DNA of 64,000 nt from a virus (taxonomy: Duplodnaviria; Heunggongvirae; Uroviricota; Caudoviricetes): IMG/VR virus record IMGVR_UViG_3300020723_000003. One strand, written 5' to 3'. Position 1 is the first letter of the stretch. Each line of letters opens with the position of its first letter. The notes under the pieces are model-generated. The model was not told the origin of the DNA. It ran no database searches and saw only the letters and a program-made list of their open reading frames with translations. Below are positions 4,534-56,312 of this stretch, piece by piece. The translations under genes were made by a program, and so were the position numbers.

Positions 4534-6038
4534 TGATAGAAGTACATAAAATAAACGAATCCTTTGTTATCCTTAAATGCGATAGAGGAATAGCCCAAGA
4601 ATTATCTGAATATTTTTCGTTTCTAGTTCCTGGTTACAAATATATGCCTGCATTTAAAAATAAAATGTGGGATGGAAAATTAAGATTAGCTAAACTTCTT
4701 CCAAATGGTGATGTTGAATTTTATGTCGGATTAATTAACCAACTAGAAATATTTTGTTCGGACAGAGAATATTCCCTAATTAAAAATTATGATGATCGTT
4801 TGAATTTAATTTCATCAGAAGAATTACAATGCTTTATTGAAAAATTAAATATACATTCTTACGGAAAACGTATTGAAGTTAGAGATTATCAATTTGAATG
4901 TGTGTTAGATTTTTTAAATACGAAAAGAATGGTAGGATTAAGTCCAACCAGTTCTGGAAAGAGTCTGATTCTTTATATTATAATACGCTATTTAATACAA
5001 AATACTTGTAAAAAAACATTATTAATTGTACCAAATGTATCATTATGCCACCAATTAGCCTCAGATTTTGTAGATTATGCATCACACAATAAATGGGATT
5101 CTGATAATCATATACATCTAGTGTTTTCCGGAAAAGATAAAGATGCTGATAAAGAAATAATTTTATCTACATGGCAATCTTTATATACCATAAAAGATAA
5201 AAATTACTTTAAACAATTTGATCTTGTTATTTGTGATGAAGCGCATCTTTCTTCAGGAAAAGAAATAACTACTATAATAGAAAAGTGTATTAATGCTGAA
5301 TATAGAATTGGTGTAACTGGTACTCTAAATGGTCAAAAAATACATTCATTGCAGTTAGAATCATTATTTGGTCCAGTAAAAAAAGTTATTACAACAAAAG
5401 AATTAATGGATAATAATCAAGTAACAAATTTAGCCATTAAATGTATTGTATTAAAGTATCCAGAAGAAATAACAAAACTTACCCAAAATTTAAAATACCA
5501 AGAAGAATTAGATTTTATTATATCAAATAAAGAAAGAAATAAATTTATTAAAAATCTAACTTTATCTCTTAAAGGAAATACATTATTGTTGTATCAATTC
5601 GTAGAAAAGCATGGAGATGTGTTATATAACCTTATTTCTAATTCGAAATTTGCACAAGATAAAATTGTATACTATATACATGGAGATATAAAAGCGGAAG
5701 AAAGGGAATCTATAAGAAAGGCGATGGAGACTCAAAATAATGTTATTCTAATAGGTTCTGTTGGTACTGTTTCTACTGGAACAAATATTAAAAACTTACA
5801 CAACATTATTTTTGCAAGTCCAAGCAAATCAAGAGTTAGAAATCTCCAAGCAATTGGAAGGGTTCTTCGACTTAATGAGAATAAGGATAAAGCTATCCTT
5901 TATGATTTAGCAGACGATCTGAGGTATAAAAAGCATCAAAATTATACTATTCTTCATTTTAAAGAAAGAATTAAAATTTACAATGAAGAAAAATTTAATT
6001 ATAAATTGATTAATATTGATCTAGATCAGACCCTATAG
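4533..6038 (+). CDS. uvsW: UvsW DNA/RNA helicase (SF2)
   Basis: Walker A SPTSSGKS, DEAH box VICDEAH, helicase C motifs. Synteny after uvsY. Confidence 0.85.
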   Translation: MIEVHKINESFVILKCDRGIAQELSEYFSFLVPGYKYMPAFKNKMWDGKLRLAKLLPNGDVEFYVGLINQLEIFCSDREYSLIKNYDDRLNLISSEELQCFIEKLNIHSYGKRIEVRDYQFECVLDFLNTKRMVGLSPTSSGKSLILYIIIRYLIQNTCKKTLLIVPNVSLCHQLASDFVDYASHNKWDSDNHIHLVFSGKDKDADKEIILSTWQSLYTIKDKNYFKQFDLVICDEAHLSSGKEITTIIEKCINAEYRIGVTGTLNGQKIHSLQLESLFGPVKKVITTKELMDNNQVTNLAIKCIVLKYPEEITKLTQNLKYQEELDFIISNKERNKFIKNLTLSLKGNTLLLYQFVEKHGDVLYNLISNSKFAQDKIVYYIHGDIKAEERESIRKAMETQNNVILIGSVGTVSTGTNIKNLHNIIFASPSKSRVRNLQAIGRVLRLNENKDKAILYDLADDLRYKKHQNYTILHFKERIKIYNEEKFNYKLINIDLDQTL

Positions 6039-13181: not shown

Positions 13182-13270
13182 GCTCTTAGGTACTCTAATG
13201 GTAAGAGATTTGACTGTTAATCAAACGTATACAGAAATGTTATGGGGGTTCGAGTCCCTCCCTAAGAGCA
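13182..13270 (+). tRNA. Unusual tRNA-like gene: anticodon GUU (Asn) with long variable arm and extended acceptor helix
   Basis: Cloverleaf: acceptor TCTTAGG/CCTAAGA, D-arm CTCT-AATGGTA-AGAG, anticodon arm TTTGA-CTGTTAA-TCAAA, 18-nt variable region, T-arm GGGGG-TTCGAGT-CCCTC. The helix continues to 16 bp into flanks (13175..13190 with 13261..13276). No encoded CCA. Confidence 0.45.
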
Positions 13271-13385
13271 CTGCTCATTTAAATAAATTACAAGGTAAAA
13301 TCTTGAAAGAAAACACTTCAAAGGTCGGGAGATACACTTTGAATAGTGGTGCAGTAAAAGTCTGTGATATCTCCCCCTTGTTTTG

Positions 13386-13460
13386 AGGATGGTAGCTCAA
13401 TGGTAGAGCAGTTTGTTAGAAATAACATTTAAGCATGGGTTCGAATCCCATCGTTCCTCA
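13386..13460 (+). tRNA. tRNA-like element / probable tRNA pseudogene
   Basis: Canonical D-arm (GCTC-AATGGTA-GAGC) and T-arm (ATGGG-TTCGAAT-CCCAT), but no foldable 7-nt anticodon loop (GTTA-GAAA-TAAC tetraloop hairpin instead) and only 5/7 acceptor pairs. Confidence 0.35.
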
Positions 13461-13470
13461 CTTAGTTTAT

Positions 13471-13546
13471 CTCTCTGTAGTGTAGTCTGGTAACATGATG
13501 CGTTTGGGGCGCATTGTCCTTCGTTCAAATCGAAGCAGAGAGACCA
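13471..13546 (+). tRNA. tRNA-Pro (anticodon UGG)
   Basis: Acceptor CTCTCTG/CAGAGAG, anticodon arm ATGCG-TTTGGGG-CGCAT, T-arm CTTCG-TTCAAAT-CGAAG, discriminator A, encoded CCA. Confidence 0.75.
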
Positions 13547-13550
13547 GTTT

Positions 13551-13641
13551 GGAAGAGTGGTTGAGTGGTTTAAGACAGCAGTCTTGAAAACTGTCGAGGG
13601 TTAATACCCCTCCGTGGGTTCGAATCCCACCTCTTCCGCCA
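13551..13641 (+). tRNA. tRNA-Ser (anticodon UGA), type II
   Basis: Acceptor GGAAGAG/CTCTTCC, anticodon loop CTTGAAA, long variable arm CGAGGGTTAATACCCCTCCG, T-arm GTGGG-TTCGAAT-CCCAC, discriminator G, encoded CCA. Confidence 0.75.
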
Positions 13642-13646
13642 TTTTC

Positions 13647-13724
13647 GCACCACTAGCTCAATTGGTTAGAGCTCTCCGCTCATAACGGATAGGTTCTGGG
13701 TTCAAATCCCAGGTCGGTGCACCA
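13647..13724 (+). tRNA. tRNA with CAU anticodon (Met or Ile-lysidine type)
   Basis: D-arm GCTC-AATTGGTTA-GAGC, anticodon loop CTCATAA, T-arm CTGGG-TTCAAAT-CCCAG, encoded CCA. The acceptor stem has 2 mismatches and one extra nucleotide at the T-stem junction. Confidence 0.55.
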
Positions 13725-21756: not shown

Positions 21757-22665
21757 ATGAGTTTACTTGAAAAACTTAAAAAAAATTCAACGATAAAAGA
21801 ATCATCTATTTTATCTGTATCAAAATTTTTTACTAAAAAGGATATGATAACAACTCCAATTCCTGCGTTTAATGTTGCATTATCAGGCAGATTGGATGGC
21901 GGATTAACTCCAGGACTTTCATTATTTTGTGGTCCTAGTAAACATTTTAAAAGCCTTTTTTGTTTGATTTTAGCTAAAGCATATATGGATAAATATCCAG
22001 AATCTGTATTAGTATTTTATGATTGCGAATTTGGTACACCCGAAGCGTATTTTGATTCATTAGGTATGGATAAAGATAGAATTCTCCATACCCCAATTAT
22101 GAATATGGAAGAGTTTAAATTTGATATTATTAATCACCTTCAAAATATTACTAGAGGCGACAAAGTAATATTTGTTGTTGATTCTTTAGGAAATATGGCT
22201 AGTAAAAAAGAAACTGATGATGCTATTGATGGTAAATCTGTTGCTGATATGACTCGTGCAAAATCTATGAAATCTATGTTTCGTATGATTACACCATATC
22301 TAGTTAAATATGATATTCCTATGGTAGCAGTAAATCATATCTATATGACTCAGGAAATGTTCAGTAAACCAGTCGTTAGCGGGGGTTGTGTTGTAGCAGG
22401 CACTAAAATTCAAATGTTTGATAGATCGTTAAAATCTATTGAGGATATTACACCTGGATGTTTGGTTAAAACTCAAGATGGTCCTAAAATTGTTACACAT
22501 AGTTGGAACCCAGAGACACTTTTAGATGGAAATCCAGAATGTTATAAAATTACATTTGAAGATGGTTACTCTGTAATTTGCTCTGATGAACACCCATTTC
22601 TTAAAAATTCAGAATTTGTATCGGCAAAGGAACTTAGTATTGGAGATGATATAACAACATTGTGA
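21757..22665 (+). CDS. uvsX: UvsX recombinase N-terminal extein (aa 1-210) fused to an N-terminal split-intein half (91 aa)
   Basis: RecA-like N-part ends ...KPVVSGG. It then switches at Cys (22387) to a Hint N-domain (CVVAGTKIQMFDRSLKSIEDITPGCLVKTQDG...CSDEHPFL...) and stops at 22663. Confidence 0.85.
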   Translation: MSLLEKLKKNSTIKESSILSVSKFFTKKDMITTPIPAFNVALSGRLDGGLTPGLSLFCGPSKHFKSLFCLILAKAYMDKYPESVLVFYDCEFGTPEAYFDSLGMDKDRILHTPIMNMEEFKFDIINHLQNITRGDKVIFVVDSLGNMASKKETDDAIDGKSVADMTRAKSMKSMFRMITPYLVKYDIPMVAVNHIYMTQEMFSKPVVSGGCVVAGTKIQMFDRSLKSIEDITPGCLVKTQDGPKIVTHSWNPETLLDGNPECYKITFEDGYSVICSDEHPFLKNSEFVSAKELSIGDDITTL

Positions 22666-22702
22666 AATACAAAAAGTGGAAAAAAATATATTTGATACTG
22701 TT

Positions 22703-22834
22703 ATGGATAAAGATGTTTGGGCAACAACATCATCATTTCAAAAACGTGAAATTTGCATATATTGTGGGAAAGAAAGTGTGGTCGGTAATATTAAACGCTG
22801 GCATAATGATAATTGTAAAGAGAAAAAAATATGA
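22703..22834 (+). CDS. Mini-ORF encoding a zinc-finger-like peptide between the intein halves
   Basis: 43 codons in a different frame from the uvsX halves (MDKDVWATTSSFQKREICIYCGKESVVGNIKRWHNDNCKEKKI; CxxC...HxxxC). Its stop overlaps the ATG of the downstream half (ATATGA). Confidence 0.3.
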   Translation: MDKDVWATTSSFQKREICIYCGKESVVGNIKRWHNDNCKEKKI

Positions 22835-23388
22835 AAATTGTTAATATAGAAAAAGTTGGTAAAAGAAACGTATTTGATATAACTGTTGCTGATAATCATC
22901 AATATGTACTAGAAAATGGTGTTATCACACATAATACTGGTGTTTATCTTTCTGCTGATAATATTTACATCTTGGGCAGACAACAAGAAAAAGAAGGTAC
23001 TGATGTTGTTGGGTATAATTTTATTATAAATGTTGAAAAATCAAGACATGTTCGTGAAAAATCAAAAATACCAATTACTGTAAAATATGAAGGCGGTTTA
23101 AGTTCTTGGTCAGGTTTAATTGATATGGCTCTAGAATCAGGACATGTTGTAAAACCATCTAATGGTTGGTATTCGCGAGTTAATACTGCGACAGGCGAGG
23201 TTGAAGAAAAGAAATATCGCCTTAAAGATACAGATACAAAGGACTTCTGGAATAAAATATTATTAGATAAAACTTTTCAAGATTGGATTAAATCTAATTA
23301 TCAAGTATCTCATGGAAATATTTTAGCTTCAGATAAAGATATAGAACAAACATTTGCAGAAATTGGGGATGATGATGAAGAATTATAA
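22831..23388 (+). CDS. uvsX: C-terminal split-intein half (35 aa) fused to the UvsX C-terminal extein
   Basis: Own ATG and RBS. MKIVNIEKVGKRNVFDITVADNHQYVLENGVITHN (intein block F/G ending HN), then TGVYLSADNIYILGRQQ..., which aligns to T4 UvsX TGVMYSADTVFIIGKRQ right after SGG. Confidence 0.85.
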   Translation: MKIVNIEKVGKRNVFDITVADNHQYVLENGVITHNTGVYLSADNIYILGRQQEKEGTDVVGYNFIINVEKSRHVREKSKIPITVKYEGGLSSWSGLIDMALESGHVVKPSNGWYSRVNTATGEVEEKKYRLKDTDTKDFWNKILLDKTFQDWIKSNYQVSHGNILASDKDIEQTFAEIGDDDEEL

Positions 23389-50278: not shown

Positions 50279-51277
50279 ATGGTTATGGGAATAAGAATAC
50301 TAACTCCTAAAACAATTTATACAACGGATTATCCTACTGCTATAGAATTTGCAGAAAAACAAGCTGAGGTATTTTGGCTTCCTACTGAAATTGAAGTAGA
50401 AAAAGATCTTCATGAGTTAAAAACAAATTTTACTGAAGCAGAATATCATGGTGTTATTTCAACATTAAAATTATTCACTCTTTATGAATTAAATGTTGGA
50501 AATGATTATTGGCAAAATTATATTTCTAAAGTTTTTCCGAGACCAGATATTCAAAGAATGGCTGCAACATTTTCTTTTATGGAATTGGGTGTTCATGCAC
50601 CATTCTATAATAAAATTAATGAAGTTCTTGGTTTAGATAATGATGAGTTCTATACTGATTATTTAAATGATGAAGTTCTTGCAAATAGAATGGCTTGGAT
50701 AGGTAAACGAACTGAGAAAAGAAATACTGTTTATGACGTATTAAAATCAGTTGGTATTTTCTCTATGATTGAAGGTGCAATTCTTTATTCAAGTTTTGCT
50801 TTCTTGAAACATTTCAATTCTGCAGGTAAAAATAAATTAGTAGCTATTAATGCTGGAATCAATTTCTCTGCGATTGATGAAACTTTACATTCACAAGCTG
50901 GCGGTTGGTTATTTAGAACATTATTAAAAGAAGCTAAAGAAGATGGTCAAGTAACAGATATATTTGTTGAAGAATTAATTCGAGAACTTGAAGAAACTGC
51001 TAAAGTGATATTAGAACACGAATCAATAATTATTGATAAAATATTTGAGAAAGGTCAAATTAAAGGTATTACTGAAAATCAATTGAAACGGTTTGTTGAA
51101 TCTAGATTAGATATTTGTTTAGAAAATCTTGGATATAAAGGAATTTTTAAACCAACGTATAATCCGATTAAATCTTGGTTCTATAAAGATCTAGAATCTT
51201 CTACGTTGCACGACTTTTTTTCGTCGCAAGGTTCTGATTATAATAGAAATTGGATTGAAAATAAATTTAAATGGTAA
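50279..51277 (+). CDS. nrdB: Ribonucleotide reductase small subunit NrdB (class Ia)
   Basis: Di-iron and Tyr-radical regions (MELGVHAPFY; SAIDETLHSQAG). 332 aa. Upstream of nrdA. Confidence 0.8.
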   Translation: MVMGIRILTPKTIYTTDYPTAIEFAEKQAEVFWLPTEIEVEKDLHELKTNFTEAEYHGVISTLKLFTLYELNVGNDYWQNYISKVFPRPDIQRMAATFSFMELGVHAPFYNKINEVLGLDNDEFYTDYLNDEVLANRMAWIGKRTEKRNTVYDVLKSVGIFSMIEGAILYSSFAFLKHFNSAGKNKLVAINAGINFSAIDETLHSQAGGWLFRTLLKEAKEDGQVTDIFVEELIRELEETAKVILEHESIIIDKIFEKGQIKGITENQLKRFVESRLDICLENLGYKGIFKPTYNPIKSWFYKDLESSTLHDFFSSQGSDYNRNWIENKFKW

Positions 51278-52419
51278 CTGAAATGAAAGAATTATCAATA
51301 TACGACGAATTAGGTGAAGAAAGAAAAAAATTGCAAGGTGAAGGTAAATTACCAATGTGGTGTTCGACTATTGCATGGCAAATGCTTAAAGAAAATTATC
51401 TTTCTGAAAAATATCCTGATTTAAAATCAGTATATACACGTGTAGCTAAACATGCTGCGCAATATACTACAAATCCTGATGAATGGGAACAAAAATTCTT
51501 TGATCTATTCTGGAAAGGATATTTGGCAGCTTCAACTCCTGTATTGTCTAATATGGGAACAGGATTTGGTTGTTCTGTAAGTTGTTCAGGCGGATATATC
51601 AATGATTCAGTTTATGATTTCTATGATGCACAAAAAGAAGCTGCAGTTCTATCAAAAAATGGTTTTGGTACATCAGGCTATCTTGGTGCAATTAGACCAA
51701 GAGGTTCTAAAATTTTTGGAATGAAAGGTAGTGCTTCTGGTGTCCTTCCAGTATTCAAAGATTTTATACAAATGTCTAGAGATATTTCTCAAGGTTCACA
51801 AAGACGAGGTGCTTGGGCTGGGTATCTTGAAATTGATCATGATGATTTTTATGAATTGGTAAATTATATCGGTAAGAATCCTGACGATGCAAATATTGGA
51901 TGGATTATCACAAAAAACTTTATTGATAGATTAGATGCTGGTGATAATGATGCAATTTCTAGATATCAAAAAGCGTTAAAGTTGAAAATGATTACTGGAA
52001 AGGGTTATTTCATTAAAATTGATGCTATTAATGAACAAAATCCACAAATGTATAAAGATAAAGGTTTATCTGTAAAAGCATCAAATTTGTGTTTAACTGG
52101 TGATACTAGAATTAATATTAAAGGTGATATTAGTGGCGAACTACAAGTATCAATGGAAGGGTTAAATAATTATTTAGGTAAAAATGATGATGTAGAAAAT
52201 TGGAAGGTTTGGTCATATAACACAGAAACTAACATGAGCGAATGGAAAAAAATTATAAAATCTGCACAAACATCAATATCGACTAAGATAATGAATATTA
52301 CAGACGAAATAACTGGAAAATCTATAAAATGTACGCCAGATCATAAGATTTTTACCGAGAACCGTGGATATGTTTGTGCAAAAGATTTAATGGAAAATGA
52401 TGTATTATTATTAAAATAG
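51271..52419 (+). CDS. nrdA: NrdA N-terminal extein fused to an N-terminal split-intein half
   Basis: RNR large-subunit sequence up to the active-site ...KASNL. It then switches to CLTGDTRINIKGD... (Hint N-domain, about 98 aa) and stops with TAG. Confidence 0.85.
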   Translation: MVTEMKELSIYDELGEERKKLQGEGKLPMWCSTIAWQMLKENYLSEKYPDLKSVYTRVAKHAAQYTTNPDEWEQKFFDLFWKGYLAASTPVLSNMGTGFGCSVSCSGGYINDSVYDFYDAQKEAAVLSKNGFGTSGYLGAIRPRGSKIFGMKGSASGVLPVFKDFIQMSRDISQGSQRRGAWAGYLEIDHDDFYELVNYIGKNPDDANIGWIITKNFIDRLDAGDNDAISRYQKALKLKMITGKGYFIKIDAINEQNPQMYKDKGLSVKASNLCLTGDTRINIKGDISGELQVSMEGLNNYLGKNDDVENWKVWSYNTETNMSEWKKIIKSAQTSISTKIMNITDEITGKSIKCTPDHKIFTENRGYVCAKDLMENDVLLLK

Positions 52420-52594
52420 TTTTGTGTACTGAAATATGACGAAAATATTCCTAGTTCATTTGGCGGAACTTATAGAGAAAATATTACTACTAAAAAGATT
52501 CAAAAATTACTTATAGATAAGTTTGGTGCAATTGATAAACAGTTGGGTTCATATGCTAAACACCATACAAATAAAATAAAAGAGGAAATTGAAA

Positions 52595-53590
52595 ATGAGT
52601 TTAAAAATTGAGTATTTAGAAAATGAAGAAGCGGTATATGATATATCTGTAGAAGATAACCACAATTTTTTTGCTAATGGTATATTAGTACATAATTGCA
52701 CGGAAATCACATTATTTTCTGATGAGGATCATACATTTTCTTGTGTTCTTTCATCTATGAATGCGTCTCTTTATGATGAATGGAAAGATACAGATGCTGT
52801 GTTTAATGCTACAGTATTCTTGGATTGCGTCAATCAAGATCTAATTGAAATTGGTAAAAACACTAAGGGAATGGAAAGGGTTGTTAGATTTGCTGAAAAA
52901 TCAAGAGCATTGGGATTAGGTCTTCTTGGTTTTCATACTTATCTTCAAGATCATTTAATTGCTTTTGAATCTTTAGAAGCTAATTTTAAAAATGTAGAAA
53001 TATTTAAACATCTTGATGCAGAATCAAAACGTGCTTCTGAATGGATGGCTAAAGAATTTGGTGAACCTGAATGGTGTAAAGGGTATGGAGTAAGAAATAC
53101 CCATAGAATTGCAGTGGCACCAAATCTTTCTTCTGCGTTAATCTGTGGTTCTGTGAGTCAAGGTATTGAACCTATCTATAAAAATGCTTATGTTCAAAAT
53201 ACAGCAGCAGGAAAAATGGATAGGGTTAATCCTTCATTATTAACGTTGATGAAAAAAATAAATGTATATTCAGAAGAAACTGTTAAAGATATTATTTCTA
53301 ATAATGGTTCTGTTCAGCATGTAGATTGGTTAACAGATGAAGAAAAAATAGTATTTAAAACTGCTTTTGAAATTAATCAGCATAGTATAATTAGATTGGC
53401 TTCTACAAGACAAAAATATATTGACCAAGCTCAATCTATAAATCTTTTCTTCTCTGCTGATGAAGATGAAGAATATATTTCAGAAGTCCATAAAGCTGCC
53501 TTTAAAGATCCTTATATTAAATCGTTGTATTATATTAGATCTGAAACTGGGGTTAATGTTTCAAAAGAGTGTCTGAGTTGTCATGGTTGA
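52595..53590 (+). CDS. nrdA: C-terminal split-intein half fused to the NrdA C-terminal extein
   Basis: AAGAGGA RBS. MSLKIEYLENEEAVYDISVEDNHNFFANGILVHN then CTEITLFS..., which restores the SNLCTEI active-site motif. Different reading frame from the N-half. Confidence 0.85.
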   Translation: MSLKIEYLENEEAVYDISVEDNHNFFANGILVHNCTEITLFSDEDHTFSCVLSSMNASLYDEWKDTDAVFNATVFLDCVNQDLIEIGKNTKGMERVVRFAEKSRALGLGLLGFHTYLQDHLIAFESLEANFKNVEIFKHLDAESKRASEWMAKEFGEPEWCKGYGVRNTHRIAVAPNLSSALICGSVSQGIEPIYKNAYVQNTAAGKMDRVNPSLLTLMKKINVYSEETVKDIISNNGSVQHVDWLTDEEKIVFKTAFEINQHSIIRLASTRQKYIDQAQSINLFFSADEDEEYISEVHKAAFKDPYIKSLYYIRSETGVNVSKECLSCHG

Positions 53591-55860: not shown

Positions 55861-56312
55861 CTGAATCTTTGAATCTTTGTTCGAATCTTTGAATCTTTGT
55901 TCGAATCTTCGAATCTTTGAATCTTTGTTTGAATCTTTGTTCGAATCTTTGAATCTTTGTTCGAATCTTCGAATCTTTGTTCGAATCTTTGAATCTTTGA
56001 ATCTTTGAATCTTTGTTCGAATCTTTGTTCGAATCTTTGAATCTTTGTTCGAATCTTTGTTCGAATCTTTGAATCTTTGTTCGAATCTTTGTTCGAATCT
56101 TTGTTCGAATCTTCGAATCTTCGAATCTTCGAATCTTTGAATCTTTGTTCGAATCTTTGTTCGAATCTTTGAATCTTTGTTCGAATCTTTGAATCTTTGA
56201 ATCTTTGTTCGAATCTTTGAATCTTTGAATCTTTGTTCGAATCTTTGAATCTTTGAATCTTTGTTCGAATCTTTGAATCTTTGTTCGAATCTTTGTTCGA
56301 ATCTTTGTTCGA
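55861..56312. repeat. Tandem array 1: about 45 units of GAATCTT(T/C) with or without GTTC (8- and 12-bp units, dominant 20-bp period)
   Basis: Direct reading. No ORF; TGA is present in every unit. Confidence 0.9.

Follow-up and report, generated by a model that had tools for sequence, protein, structure and literature searches.

The nrdA gene of an uncultured T4-like phage is divided by a natural split intein, with a gap that very probably descends from a deleted HNH endonuclease gene

The DNA studied here (the window) is a stretch of 64,000 nucleotides (nt) from the Caudoviricetes record IMGVR_UViG_3300020723_000003 of IMG/VR, and its subject is nrdA, the gene for the alpha subunit of class I ribonucleotide reductase (RNR). 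Our analysis indicates that in this uncultured T4-like phage nrdA very probably exists in two pieces because of a natural split intein, and that the gap between the pieces is what a deletion left of a free-standing HNH homing endonuclease gene. The features of the locus are listed in Table 1.

The origin of the gap was read from the frame that follows the N-terminal open reading frame (N-ORF). Beyond the TAG the frame of the N-ORF stays open for exactly 63 sense codons (52420-52608, translated as FCVLKYDENIPSSFGGTYRENITTKKIQKLLIDKFGAIDKQLGSYAKHHTNKIKEEIENEFKN) and ends at TGA 52609-52611; the last sense codon lies 14 nt into the C-terminal open reading frame (C-ORF), and the overlap amounts to 17 nt when the stop is included. 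A preliminary description, made from the sequence alone, had called such a run improbable by chance, and the calculation agrees, at P of about 0.001 both by shuffling (77 of 100,000 same-base shuffles were open) and from composition (P = 0.0013). Stop-free runs as long as 63 codons make up 0.1% of those found off frame in the window.

The 63-amino-acid (aa) peptide was first matched to the last residues encoded by the gene lying between the intein halves in the related contig L056 (tblastn E 4e-5, BLASTP E 6e-8). In the 261-aa protein P0005, positions 199-261 match all 63 residues with 70% identity (BLASTP, E 4e-32), and an exhaustive phmmer search over 1.84 billion representatives led to the 289-aa protein P0016, whose positions 227-289 match peptide residues 1-63 with 89% identity (E 3.9e-29 for the whole library). 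An HNH motif is present in each of the two proteins, and each matches PHROG 655 'homing endonuclease'. Their genes stand between the N-intein and C-intein parts of an nrdA locus and run 17 nt into the C-intein open reading frame (ORF), which is also the overlap observed in the window. The motif EEHHIIP...N, found at about residues 40-62 of P0016, is deleted in the window. What persists there has no start codon, HNH motif, upstream hairpin or promoter, and no in-frame ATG or GTG preceded by a ribosome-binding site (RBS); its 3' end holds the RBS and the start codon of the C half. The AAGAGGA of this RBS is identical base for base in the contigs L093, L094 and L100, the predicted fold of the gap RNA is no better than that of shuffled sequences (z +1.49), and the RBS is not sequestered in the predicted structure. 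Sequence comparison thus identifies the gap as an endonuclease remnant, in which the 63-codon frame is the tail of a free-standing HNH homing endonuclease gene and not an intein linker.

A profile hidden Markov model (HMM), built on a mixture of HNH and GIY-YIG endonucleases (seven in all) from the loci examined first, gave the peptide 2.9 bits, a score beaten by 396 of 5000 shuffles; its alignment was too heterogeneous, and closer family members were needed before the homology stood out. The relic itself matched no Pfam or PHROG family, a scan of viral contigs with the 63-aa peptide returned no match, and the sole match in a word-index protein search was P0001, a called fragment of 44 aa that led to L093.

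The contig L100, which encodes P0016 between near-identical intein halves, allowed the deletion to be mapped. Its layout comprises the end of the N-intein with its TAG, a hairpin spacer, the endonuclease gene at 156-1025 and the C-intein ORF from 1009 onwards; in the spacer, a 12-bp hairpin that is missing from the window sequesters the endonuclease RBS and presents TATAAATA in its loop (z -4.4). Window positions 52319-52435 align to L100 1-117 at 94.9%, and positions 52422-53127 align to L100 836-1541. The 14 nt shared by both alignments (window 52422-52435) are a microhomology that holds the deletion junction, and they correspond in L100 to two imperfect direct repeats of the same length, TTGTGTACTGAAAT at 104-117 and TTGTAAACTAAAAT at 836-849. 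The window therefore equals L100 minus 118-849, that is, minus 732 nt. According to this comparison, an endonuclease gene of about 289 codons once separated the halves, and a 732-nt deletion between the 14-nt repeats took the hairpin with its TATAAATA promoter box, the start codon and the first ~231 codons, HNH motif included, leaving the last 58. Since the endonuclease gene and the N-intein share a frame in L100, and since 732 is divisible by three, these 58 codons, placed after five spacer codons, continue the frame of the N-ORF without a stop. This deletion fully accounts for the striking length of the open frame.

Most probably, no protein is made from the relic, and it is decaying. Compared with L100 it shows two synonymous and seven non-synonymous codon changes, against five and one in the N-intein and three and one in the C-intein, a pattern that would fit a loss of constraint. 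The identical copies among the contigs L101-L104, and likewise among L106-L114, carry no information on selection.

Other contigs have kept other parts of such genes. L093 lacks another segment, the 647 nt corresponding to L100 260-906, an out-of-frame deletion, and has also lost 9 nt from the hairpin loop; the hairpin and the first 32 endonuclease codons are retained. In the relic and C-intein that L093 shares with the window, the two sequences are 96-97% identical. Neither the window allele nor that of L093 can be derived from the other. A separate nrdA relic, an ORF of 65 codons from a P0007-like endonuclease, is found in the lineage of L101-L104 (12 contigs); in L101 it occupies 5001-5198, has its own ATG 5 nt past the N-intein stop and overlaps the C-intein ORF by 17 nt. 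As a side observation, this relic could be translated by termination-reinitiation. The window retains 176 nt of the endonuclease 3' end, L101-L104 retain 198 nt, L093 117 nt, and the gap of the uvsX gene (described below) about 156 nt. P0019 (68 aa) was considered as a third relic and rejected, since it stems from an endonuclease gene that is truncated at the edge of the contig L105 and of which it represents the C-terminal part.

The break in nrdA is genuine, and its phage is a common one. Nine contigs (L106-L114), assembled independently from several ENA and JGI samples and chosen by exact identity to the N-ORF or the C-ORF protein, are identical to the window over the length that could be compared (1,901-2,320 nt), including the 175-nt gap, which rules out an assembly error as the cause. 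The exact N-ORF protein is indexed in 74 blocks of the collection and the exact C-ORF protein in 68. Metagenomes with this phage include JGI 3300000162, 3300031813 and 3300020726 and ENA ERZ272718xx. Re-reading the window confirmed what the preliminary description had given for the N-ORF, the TAG at 52417, the RBS, the C-ORF, the 63 codons and the 14 nt; the single continuous ORF that it had named as the outcome speaking against a split was not found, the nine identical contigs having two ORFs. An automated ORF list opens the C-ORF at an in-frame TTG (52589), and the start used here is the ATG at 52595, from which the ORF, in a frame other than that of the N-ORF, encodes MSLKIEYLENEEAVYDISVEDNHNFFANGILVHN followed by CTEITLF... 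up to 53590.

Table 1. Features of the nrdB-nrdA region, in coordinates of the 64,000-nt window
Feature	Position	Strand	Description
nrdB (RNR small subunit)	50279..51277	+	ORF; 3' end shares 7 nt with the start of nrdA-N
N-ORF	51271-52419	+	273 aa of NrdA to ...KASNL, then the 109-aa N-intein, then TAG
nrdA N-extein	51271..52089	+	273 codons, C-terminal ...KASNL; Pfam Ribonuc_red_lgN, Ribonuc_red_lgC
N-intein	52090..52419	+	109 codons, from Cys1 of CLTGDTRI to ...VLLLK; stop TAG 52417-52419
Gap between halves	52420-52594		175 nt, between the N-ORF TAG and the C-ORF ATG
Native spacer remnant after the N-intein stop, TTTTGTGTACTGAAAT	52420..52435	+	Identical to L100 102-117
3' relic of HNH endonuclease gene (probable)	52436..52611	+	Last 58 codons and TGA
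Shine-Dalgarno AAGAGGA for the C-half ORF	52580..52586	+	Read from the sequence; 8 nt 5' of ATG 52595; within the relic
C-intein MSLKIEYLENEEAVYDISVEDNHNFFANGILVHN	52595..52696	+	34 codons; block G His-Asn at the end
nrdA C-extein	52697..53590	+	CTEI (catalytic Cys) to CxxC (ECLSCHG) and TGA

Intein parts are present in both ORFs, each of them fused to one half of NrdA. In the N half Pfam recognized Ribonuc_red_lgN (PF00317), Ribonuc_red_lgC (PF02867) and Intein_splicing (PF14890; 36.3 bits, above the cutoff of 35.8), and in the C half Ribonuc_red_lgC (E 3e-49) and positions 125-155 of the 155 of Intein_splicing (32.6 bits, slightly under that cutoff). The splicing motifs comprise Cys1 after ASNL, the block B TPDH at residues 82-85, which aligns with the CTPDH of the inteins NrdJ-1 and NrdA-2, the terminal ...GILVHN and the +1 Cys. 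The fused halves are 49% identical to NrdA-2 (BLASTP, E 1e-41), and the closest solved structure by sequence is that of the NrdJ-1 intein (8ubs, E 3.8e-17); for the fused halves, AlphaFold2 run on the single sequence gave a model with a mean predicted local distance difference test score (pLDDT) of 36, too low for use. The N-intein ends in the same ...LLLK-stop as those of L051 and L100, and the C-intein is 97% identical to that of L100 and 94% to that of L094. These data uphold the split intein at SNL/CTEI that the preliminary description had recognized. NrdA-2 is a natural split intein with an SNL/C junction from Global Ocean Sampling data, for which cis-splicing of about 75-98% and orthogonal trans-splicing are reported by Pinto et al. 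2020 (PMC7090010). The intein of the window appears to bear every hallmark of an active class 1 intein, and from its motifs and the activity of NrdA-2 we infer that it would splice.

The flanking NrdA segments are well preserved. The N-extein shares 74-86% identity with the corresponding part of uninterrupted nrdA genes (L006, L008-L047) and the C-extein is collinear with uninterrupted homologues; the class I alpha features are kept, namely the N-x-C-x-E site (SNL-CTE once spliced), the C-terminal CxxC (ECLSCHG) and the nrdB neighbour. Because ASNL is joined directly to C[ST]E in uninterrupted nrdA from about 40 related phage contigs, splicing would restore the native active-site loop. The overlap of 7 nt between the end of nrdB and the start of nrdA-N places both genes in one cluster; in the window-identical contigs L106-L114 the gene equivalent to nrdB matches PF00268 (Ribonuc_red_sm). 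No terminator-like site was found between the halves. We propose that nrdB and both nrdA halves would be co-transcribed, with the C half translated from its own strong RBS, and that the 109-aa N-intein and the 34-aa C-intein would then associate and join ...ASNL to CTEI... by trans-splicing. The +1 Cys would have a double role, as a splicing nucleophile and as the radical cysteine of the enzyme. The predicted product is an NrdA of ~570 aa with the tryptic junction peptide ASNLCTEITLFSDEDHTFSCVLSSMNASLYDEWK.

Related contigs document several states of the same nrdA site. It is empty in about 40 of them, a contiguous mini-intein occupies it in L002-L004, and L007 has a contiguous intein that includes an HNH domain in frame; the last two kinds supply the contiguous NrdA inteins with which the preliminary description had proposed to compare the locus. 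Split halves enclose a full free-standing endonuclease gene of 228-304 codons in L001, L051-L054, L056-L062, L064 and L094-L100, and almost abut, 28-39 nt apart, in L005 and L063/L065. Against L100 and L093, the window is identical at 28-30 of 30 nt per block over most of the relic and the C-intein, and at about 20-25 of 30 nt after the border at 52697; overall, identity is about 95% in the cassette versus about 77% in the nrdA exteins, with a sharp drop, from about 96% to about 77%, exactly at 52697. A near-identical intein-endonuclease cassette within diverged nrdA genes is the signature expected of recent horizontal transfer (homing), and it indicates that such a transfer took place here.

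Could the gap be instead the linker of a contiguous intein, recently broken by a TAG mutation and a frameshift? The preliminary description had offered this origin, and both the contiguous inteins at the same site (L002-L004 and L007) and the fact that the open frame follows the N-intein directly, in the same frame, speak for it. We give it almost no credence, since the 63 codons correspond, over their whole length, to the C-terminal end of an endonuclease encoded by a free-standing gene with its own start codon, RBS, hairpin and stop, and an intact copy of this gene stands at the same position in L100. As the window is L100 minus 732 nt, and an intact endonuclease gene lies between the halves of L100, the intein would already have been split by the endonuclease gene that was later deleted. 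Moreover, the frame of the relic differs from that of the C-intein and overlaps it by 17 nt as the intact endonuclease genes do, and the ...LLLK-stop ending, shared with L051 and L100, is native. The same open codons directly past TAG 52417, improbable by chance, also led to the suggestion of readthrough, in which a suppressor or recoding would add a functional 63-aa extension to the N-intein and peptides such as YDENIPSSFGGTYR would be expected. This is extremely improbable: the five tRNAs of the window include no suppressor with a CUA anticodon, TAG is an ordinary stop that closes 10 of the 66 long ORFs of the window, and the in-frame run is accounted for by a multiple-of-three deletion between genes that already shared a frame. 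The relic substitutions look unconstrained (two synonymous versus seven non-synonymous), and the relic of L093 is out of frame with the piece upstream of it. Because the relic ends off the frame of the C-ORF, readthrough could not rebuild a contiguous intein.

It is very unlikely that nrdA is a decaying pseudogene, or that its halves assemble unspliced as they do in the Aeromonas phage Aeh1. Phage nrd genes can be dispensable, as established for T4. The NrdA of Aeh1 works as two fragments joined non-covalently after the insertion of an endonuclease gene (PMC2677866, PMC3045599). In the window, however, the exteins are conserved and full length, N-x-C-x-E and CxxC are intact, as are all the catalytic residues of the intein, and the locus is identical in many samples; unlike in Aeh1, the break falls inside the active-site loop and leaves 143 aa of intein attached. 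A selected role of the relic beyond the RBS and the start codon, either as a promoter or translation-initiation region of the C half or as a small DNA-binding peptide that blocks re-invasion, is unlikely, even though independent relics keep 3' ends of similar length and the one in L101-L104 has its own ATG. The window relic lacks an in-frame ATG or GTG start with an RBS and has changed mostly at non-synonymous positions with respect to L100, promoter-like matches in this part of the sequence do not exceed what chance would give, the halves lie just 28-39 nt apart in L005 and L063/L065, so that a long relic is not required, and all relics may simply be young. The similar lengths may reflect only the need for the RBS and the start codon of the C half. 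In its more specific form, in which ~160-200 nt of the endonuclease 3' end would be kept by selection as a portable expression module for the C half or as a DNA-binding peptide shielding the locus, we regard the idea as decidedly doubtful.

Several points nevertheless weigh against a split intein with a deletion-reduced endonuclease gene. L100 is a close relative and not the actual ancestor, so the repeats as they stood when the deletion occurred are inferred from it; of the N-intein it includes no more than the last 98 nt, and the left border of the shared cassette lies outside its coverage. The substitution counts of the relic are small (9 codons), and the existence of three or four independent relics of similar length (about 117-198 nt) could mean that more than the RBS and the start codon is retained. 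The case for splicing of this particular pair comes from conserved motifs and a relative that is 49% identical, and that for co-transcription solely from the absence of a terminator-like site.

The system belongs to a known kind. Split RNR genes are well documented in phages (PMC3653736), and Dassa et al. 2009 (Nucleic Acids Research (NAR) 37:2560, PMC2677866) reported a set of seven fractured loci (NrdA-1 to NrdA-7) in which an intein lies directly N-terminal to the thiyl-radical site. The window shares with them the class I RNR alpha host gene, the SNL/C insertion and the split position, and the start of its C half overlaps the end of the endonuclease frame by 17 nt, compared with 6-69 bp in the loci of that paper. 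It differs in that the endonuclease gene, of the HNH family (PHROG 655 type), is not intact (58 codons) and that the hairpin and the late-promoter box are gone. Thus, of the traits by which Dassa et al. 2009 define fractured genes, the window has the tandem same-strand halves with intein parts and lacks the intact intervening endonuclease gene. The locus derives from a fractured gene and corresponds to step III of their gene-breaking model, for which they gave one example, gp41-7, with its endonuclease gene lost (PMC2677866). Both loci have tandem split-intein halves without a working endonuclease gene in between; gp41-7 was described with the upstream hairpin kept and the endonuclease gene lacking, whereas the window has lost the hairpin and kept a 3' coding fragment, and an intact relative makes it possible to place its deletion with nucleotide precision.

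Two further systems are comparable in part. NrdJ-1 (8ubs, 9omb), a fast-splicing tool intein, has similar motifs in the N-intein (CTPDH...NRGYV) and the C-intein (HNFFAN.ILVHN), and differs in its host gene, the class II RNR gene nrdJ, and in an insertion one residue further C-terminal (PMC2677866). In Aeh1 a T4-like nrdA is broken by the free-standing HNH gene mobE (Friedrich et al. 2007; Crona et al. 2011, PMC3045599), and an RBS-sequestering hairpin and a late-promoter box lie upstream of mobE (PMC2677866); L100 has an equivalent hairpin. No intein is involved in Aeh1, where the fragments assemble unspliced, whereas in the window intein halves flank the break and the endonuclease is mostly deleted.

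Related split inteins (CTPDHKI.TKNRGYV; HNF[FY]AN.ILVHN) were seen in several RNR backgrounds (L056, L058, L060, L062 and L064), and in the spacers of these contigs they are paired with HNH or GIY-YIG free-standing endonucleases. Spacer endonucleases of both types have a similar C-terminal module (..IPKSF.KYRFNG..), which suggests a modular exchange of nuclease and DNA-binding parts. A second nrdA intein site exists in relatives near ...APN/LSSALICG (window 53127/53128), where the window has no intein: L100 (1541-3458) and L005 carry there a split intein with another endonuclease gene, L002-L004 a contiguous mini-intein, and L028 has near it a large intein, probably of the LAGLIDADG type. The nrdA neighbourhood of related contigs is rich in free-standing endonuclease genes, among them SegE-type GIY-YIG genes a few genes 3' of nrdA (L093 2011-2442; L101 6603-7106, minus strand).

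The window phage is T4-like, with a gp43-type DNA polymerase about 47% identical to those of cyanomyoviruses, and carries nrdB, mazG and thyX upstream of nrdA. An intein also divides uvsX, the gene of this phage for a RecA-like recombinase: the N half with its N-intein (CVVAGTKI...DDITTL) lies at 21757-22665, and the C-intein MKIVNIEKVGKRNVFDITVADNHQYVLENGVITHN with the C half, which contains a T4_UVSX_C domain, at 22831-23388. The 165-nt gap holds an ORF of 52 codons (22676-22834) that overlaps the start of the C half by 4 nt and is homologous to the C-terminus (...C.YC.....GN.KRWHNDNCK) of the HNH endonucleases of 237-242 aa encoded between the uvsX halves of L159 and L119; a protein search with this ORF gave no candidates, and the homology was found by tblastn against the fetched loci. 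By sequence, both fractured genes of the window phage have lost their endonuclease and kept its tail. The preliminary description had spoken of nrdA as a second essential gene of the window that depends on trans-splicing; the additional split gene holds, uvsX being split as well, and 'essential' is too strong, because T4 nrd mutants are viable, the host enzyme being able to substitute. At the uvsX site, L115 was seen to carry a contiguous mini-intein. Elsewhere in the window, five tRNA genes (13184-13724, + strand) correspond to Asn-GTT, Ser-AGA, Pro-TGG, Ser-TGA and Met-CAT, with no suppressor, and a short ORF at 55877-56008, 3' of the nrd cluster, would encode a repetitive peptide (FESLNLCSNLRIFESLFESLFESLNL...), which points to an intergenic tandem DNA repeat.

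A split intein as such is ordinary for the field, since fractured phage nrdA genes have been known at this exact site since 2009 and a relative already serves as a laboratory tool. With 49% identity to NrdA-2, the two halves add another pair to the natural split inteins; they come from a phage present in many samples and are a candidate orthogonal ligation tool. In summary, a known kind of system has been caught at a predicted stage of decay, and the locus offers a nucleotide-resolved snapshot of a step that gene-breaking and homing-cycle models predict and that has rarely been documented. Its neighbouring states are at hand as sequences, from the intact arrangement of L100 through the deletions of the window and L093 and the relic of L101-L104 to the contiguous inteins of L002-L004 and the many empty sites, and the drop in identity at the intein border indicates that the cassette moves between diverged phages.

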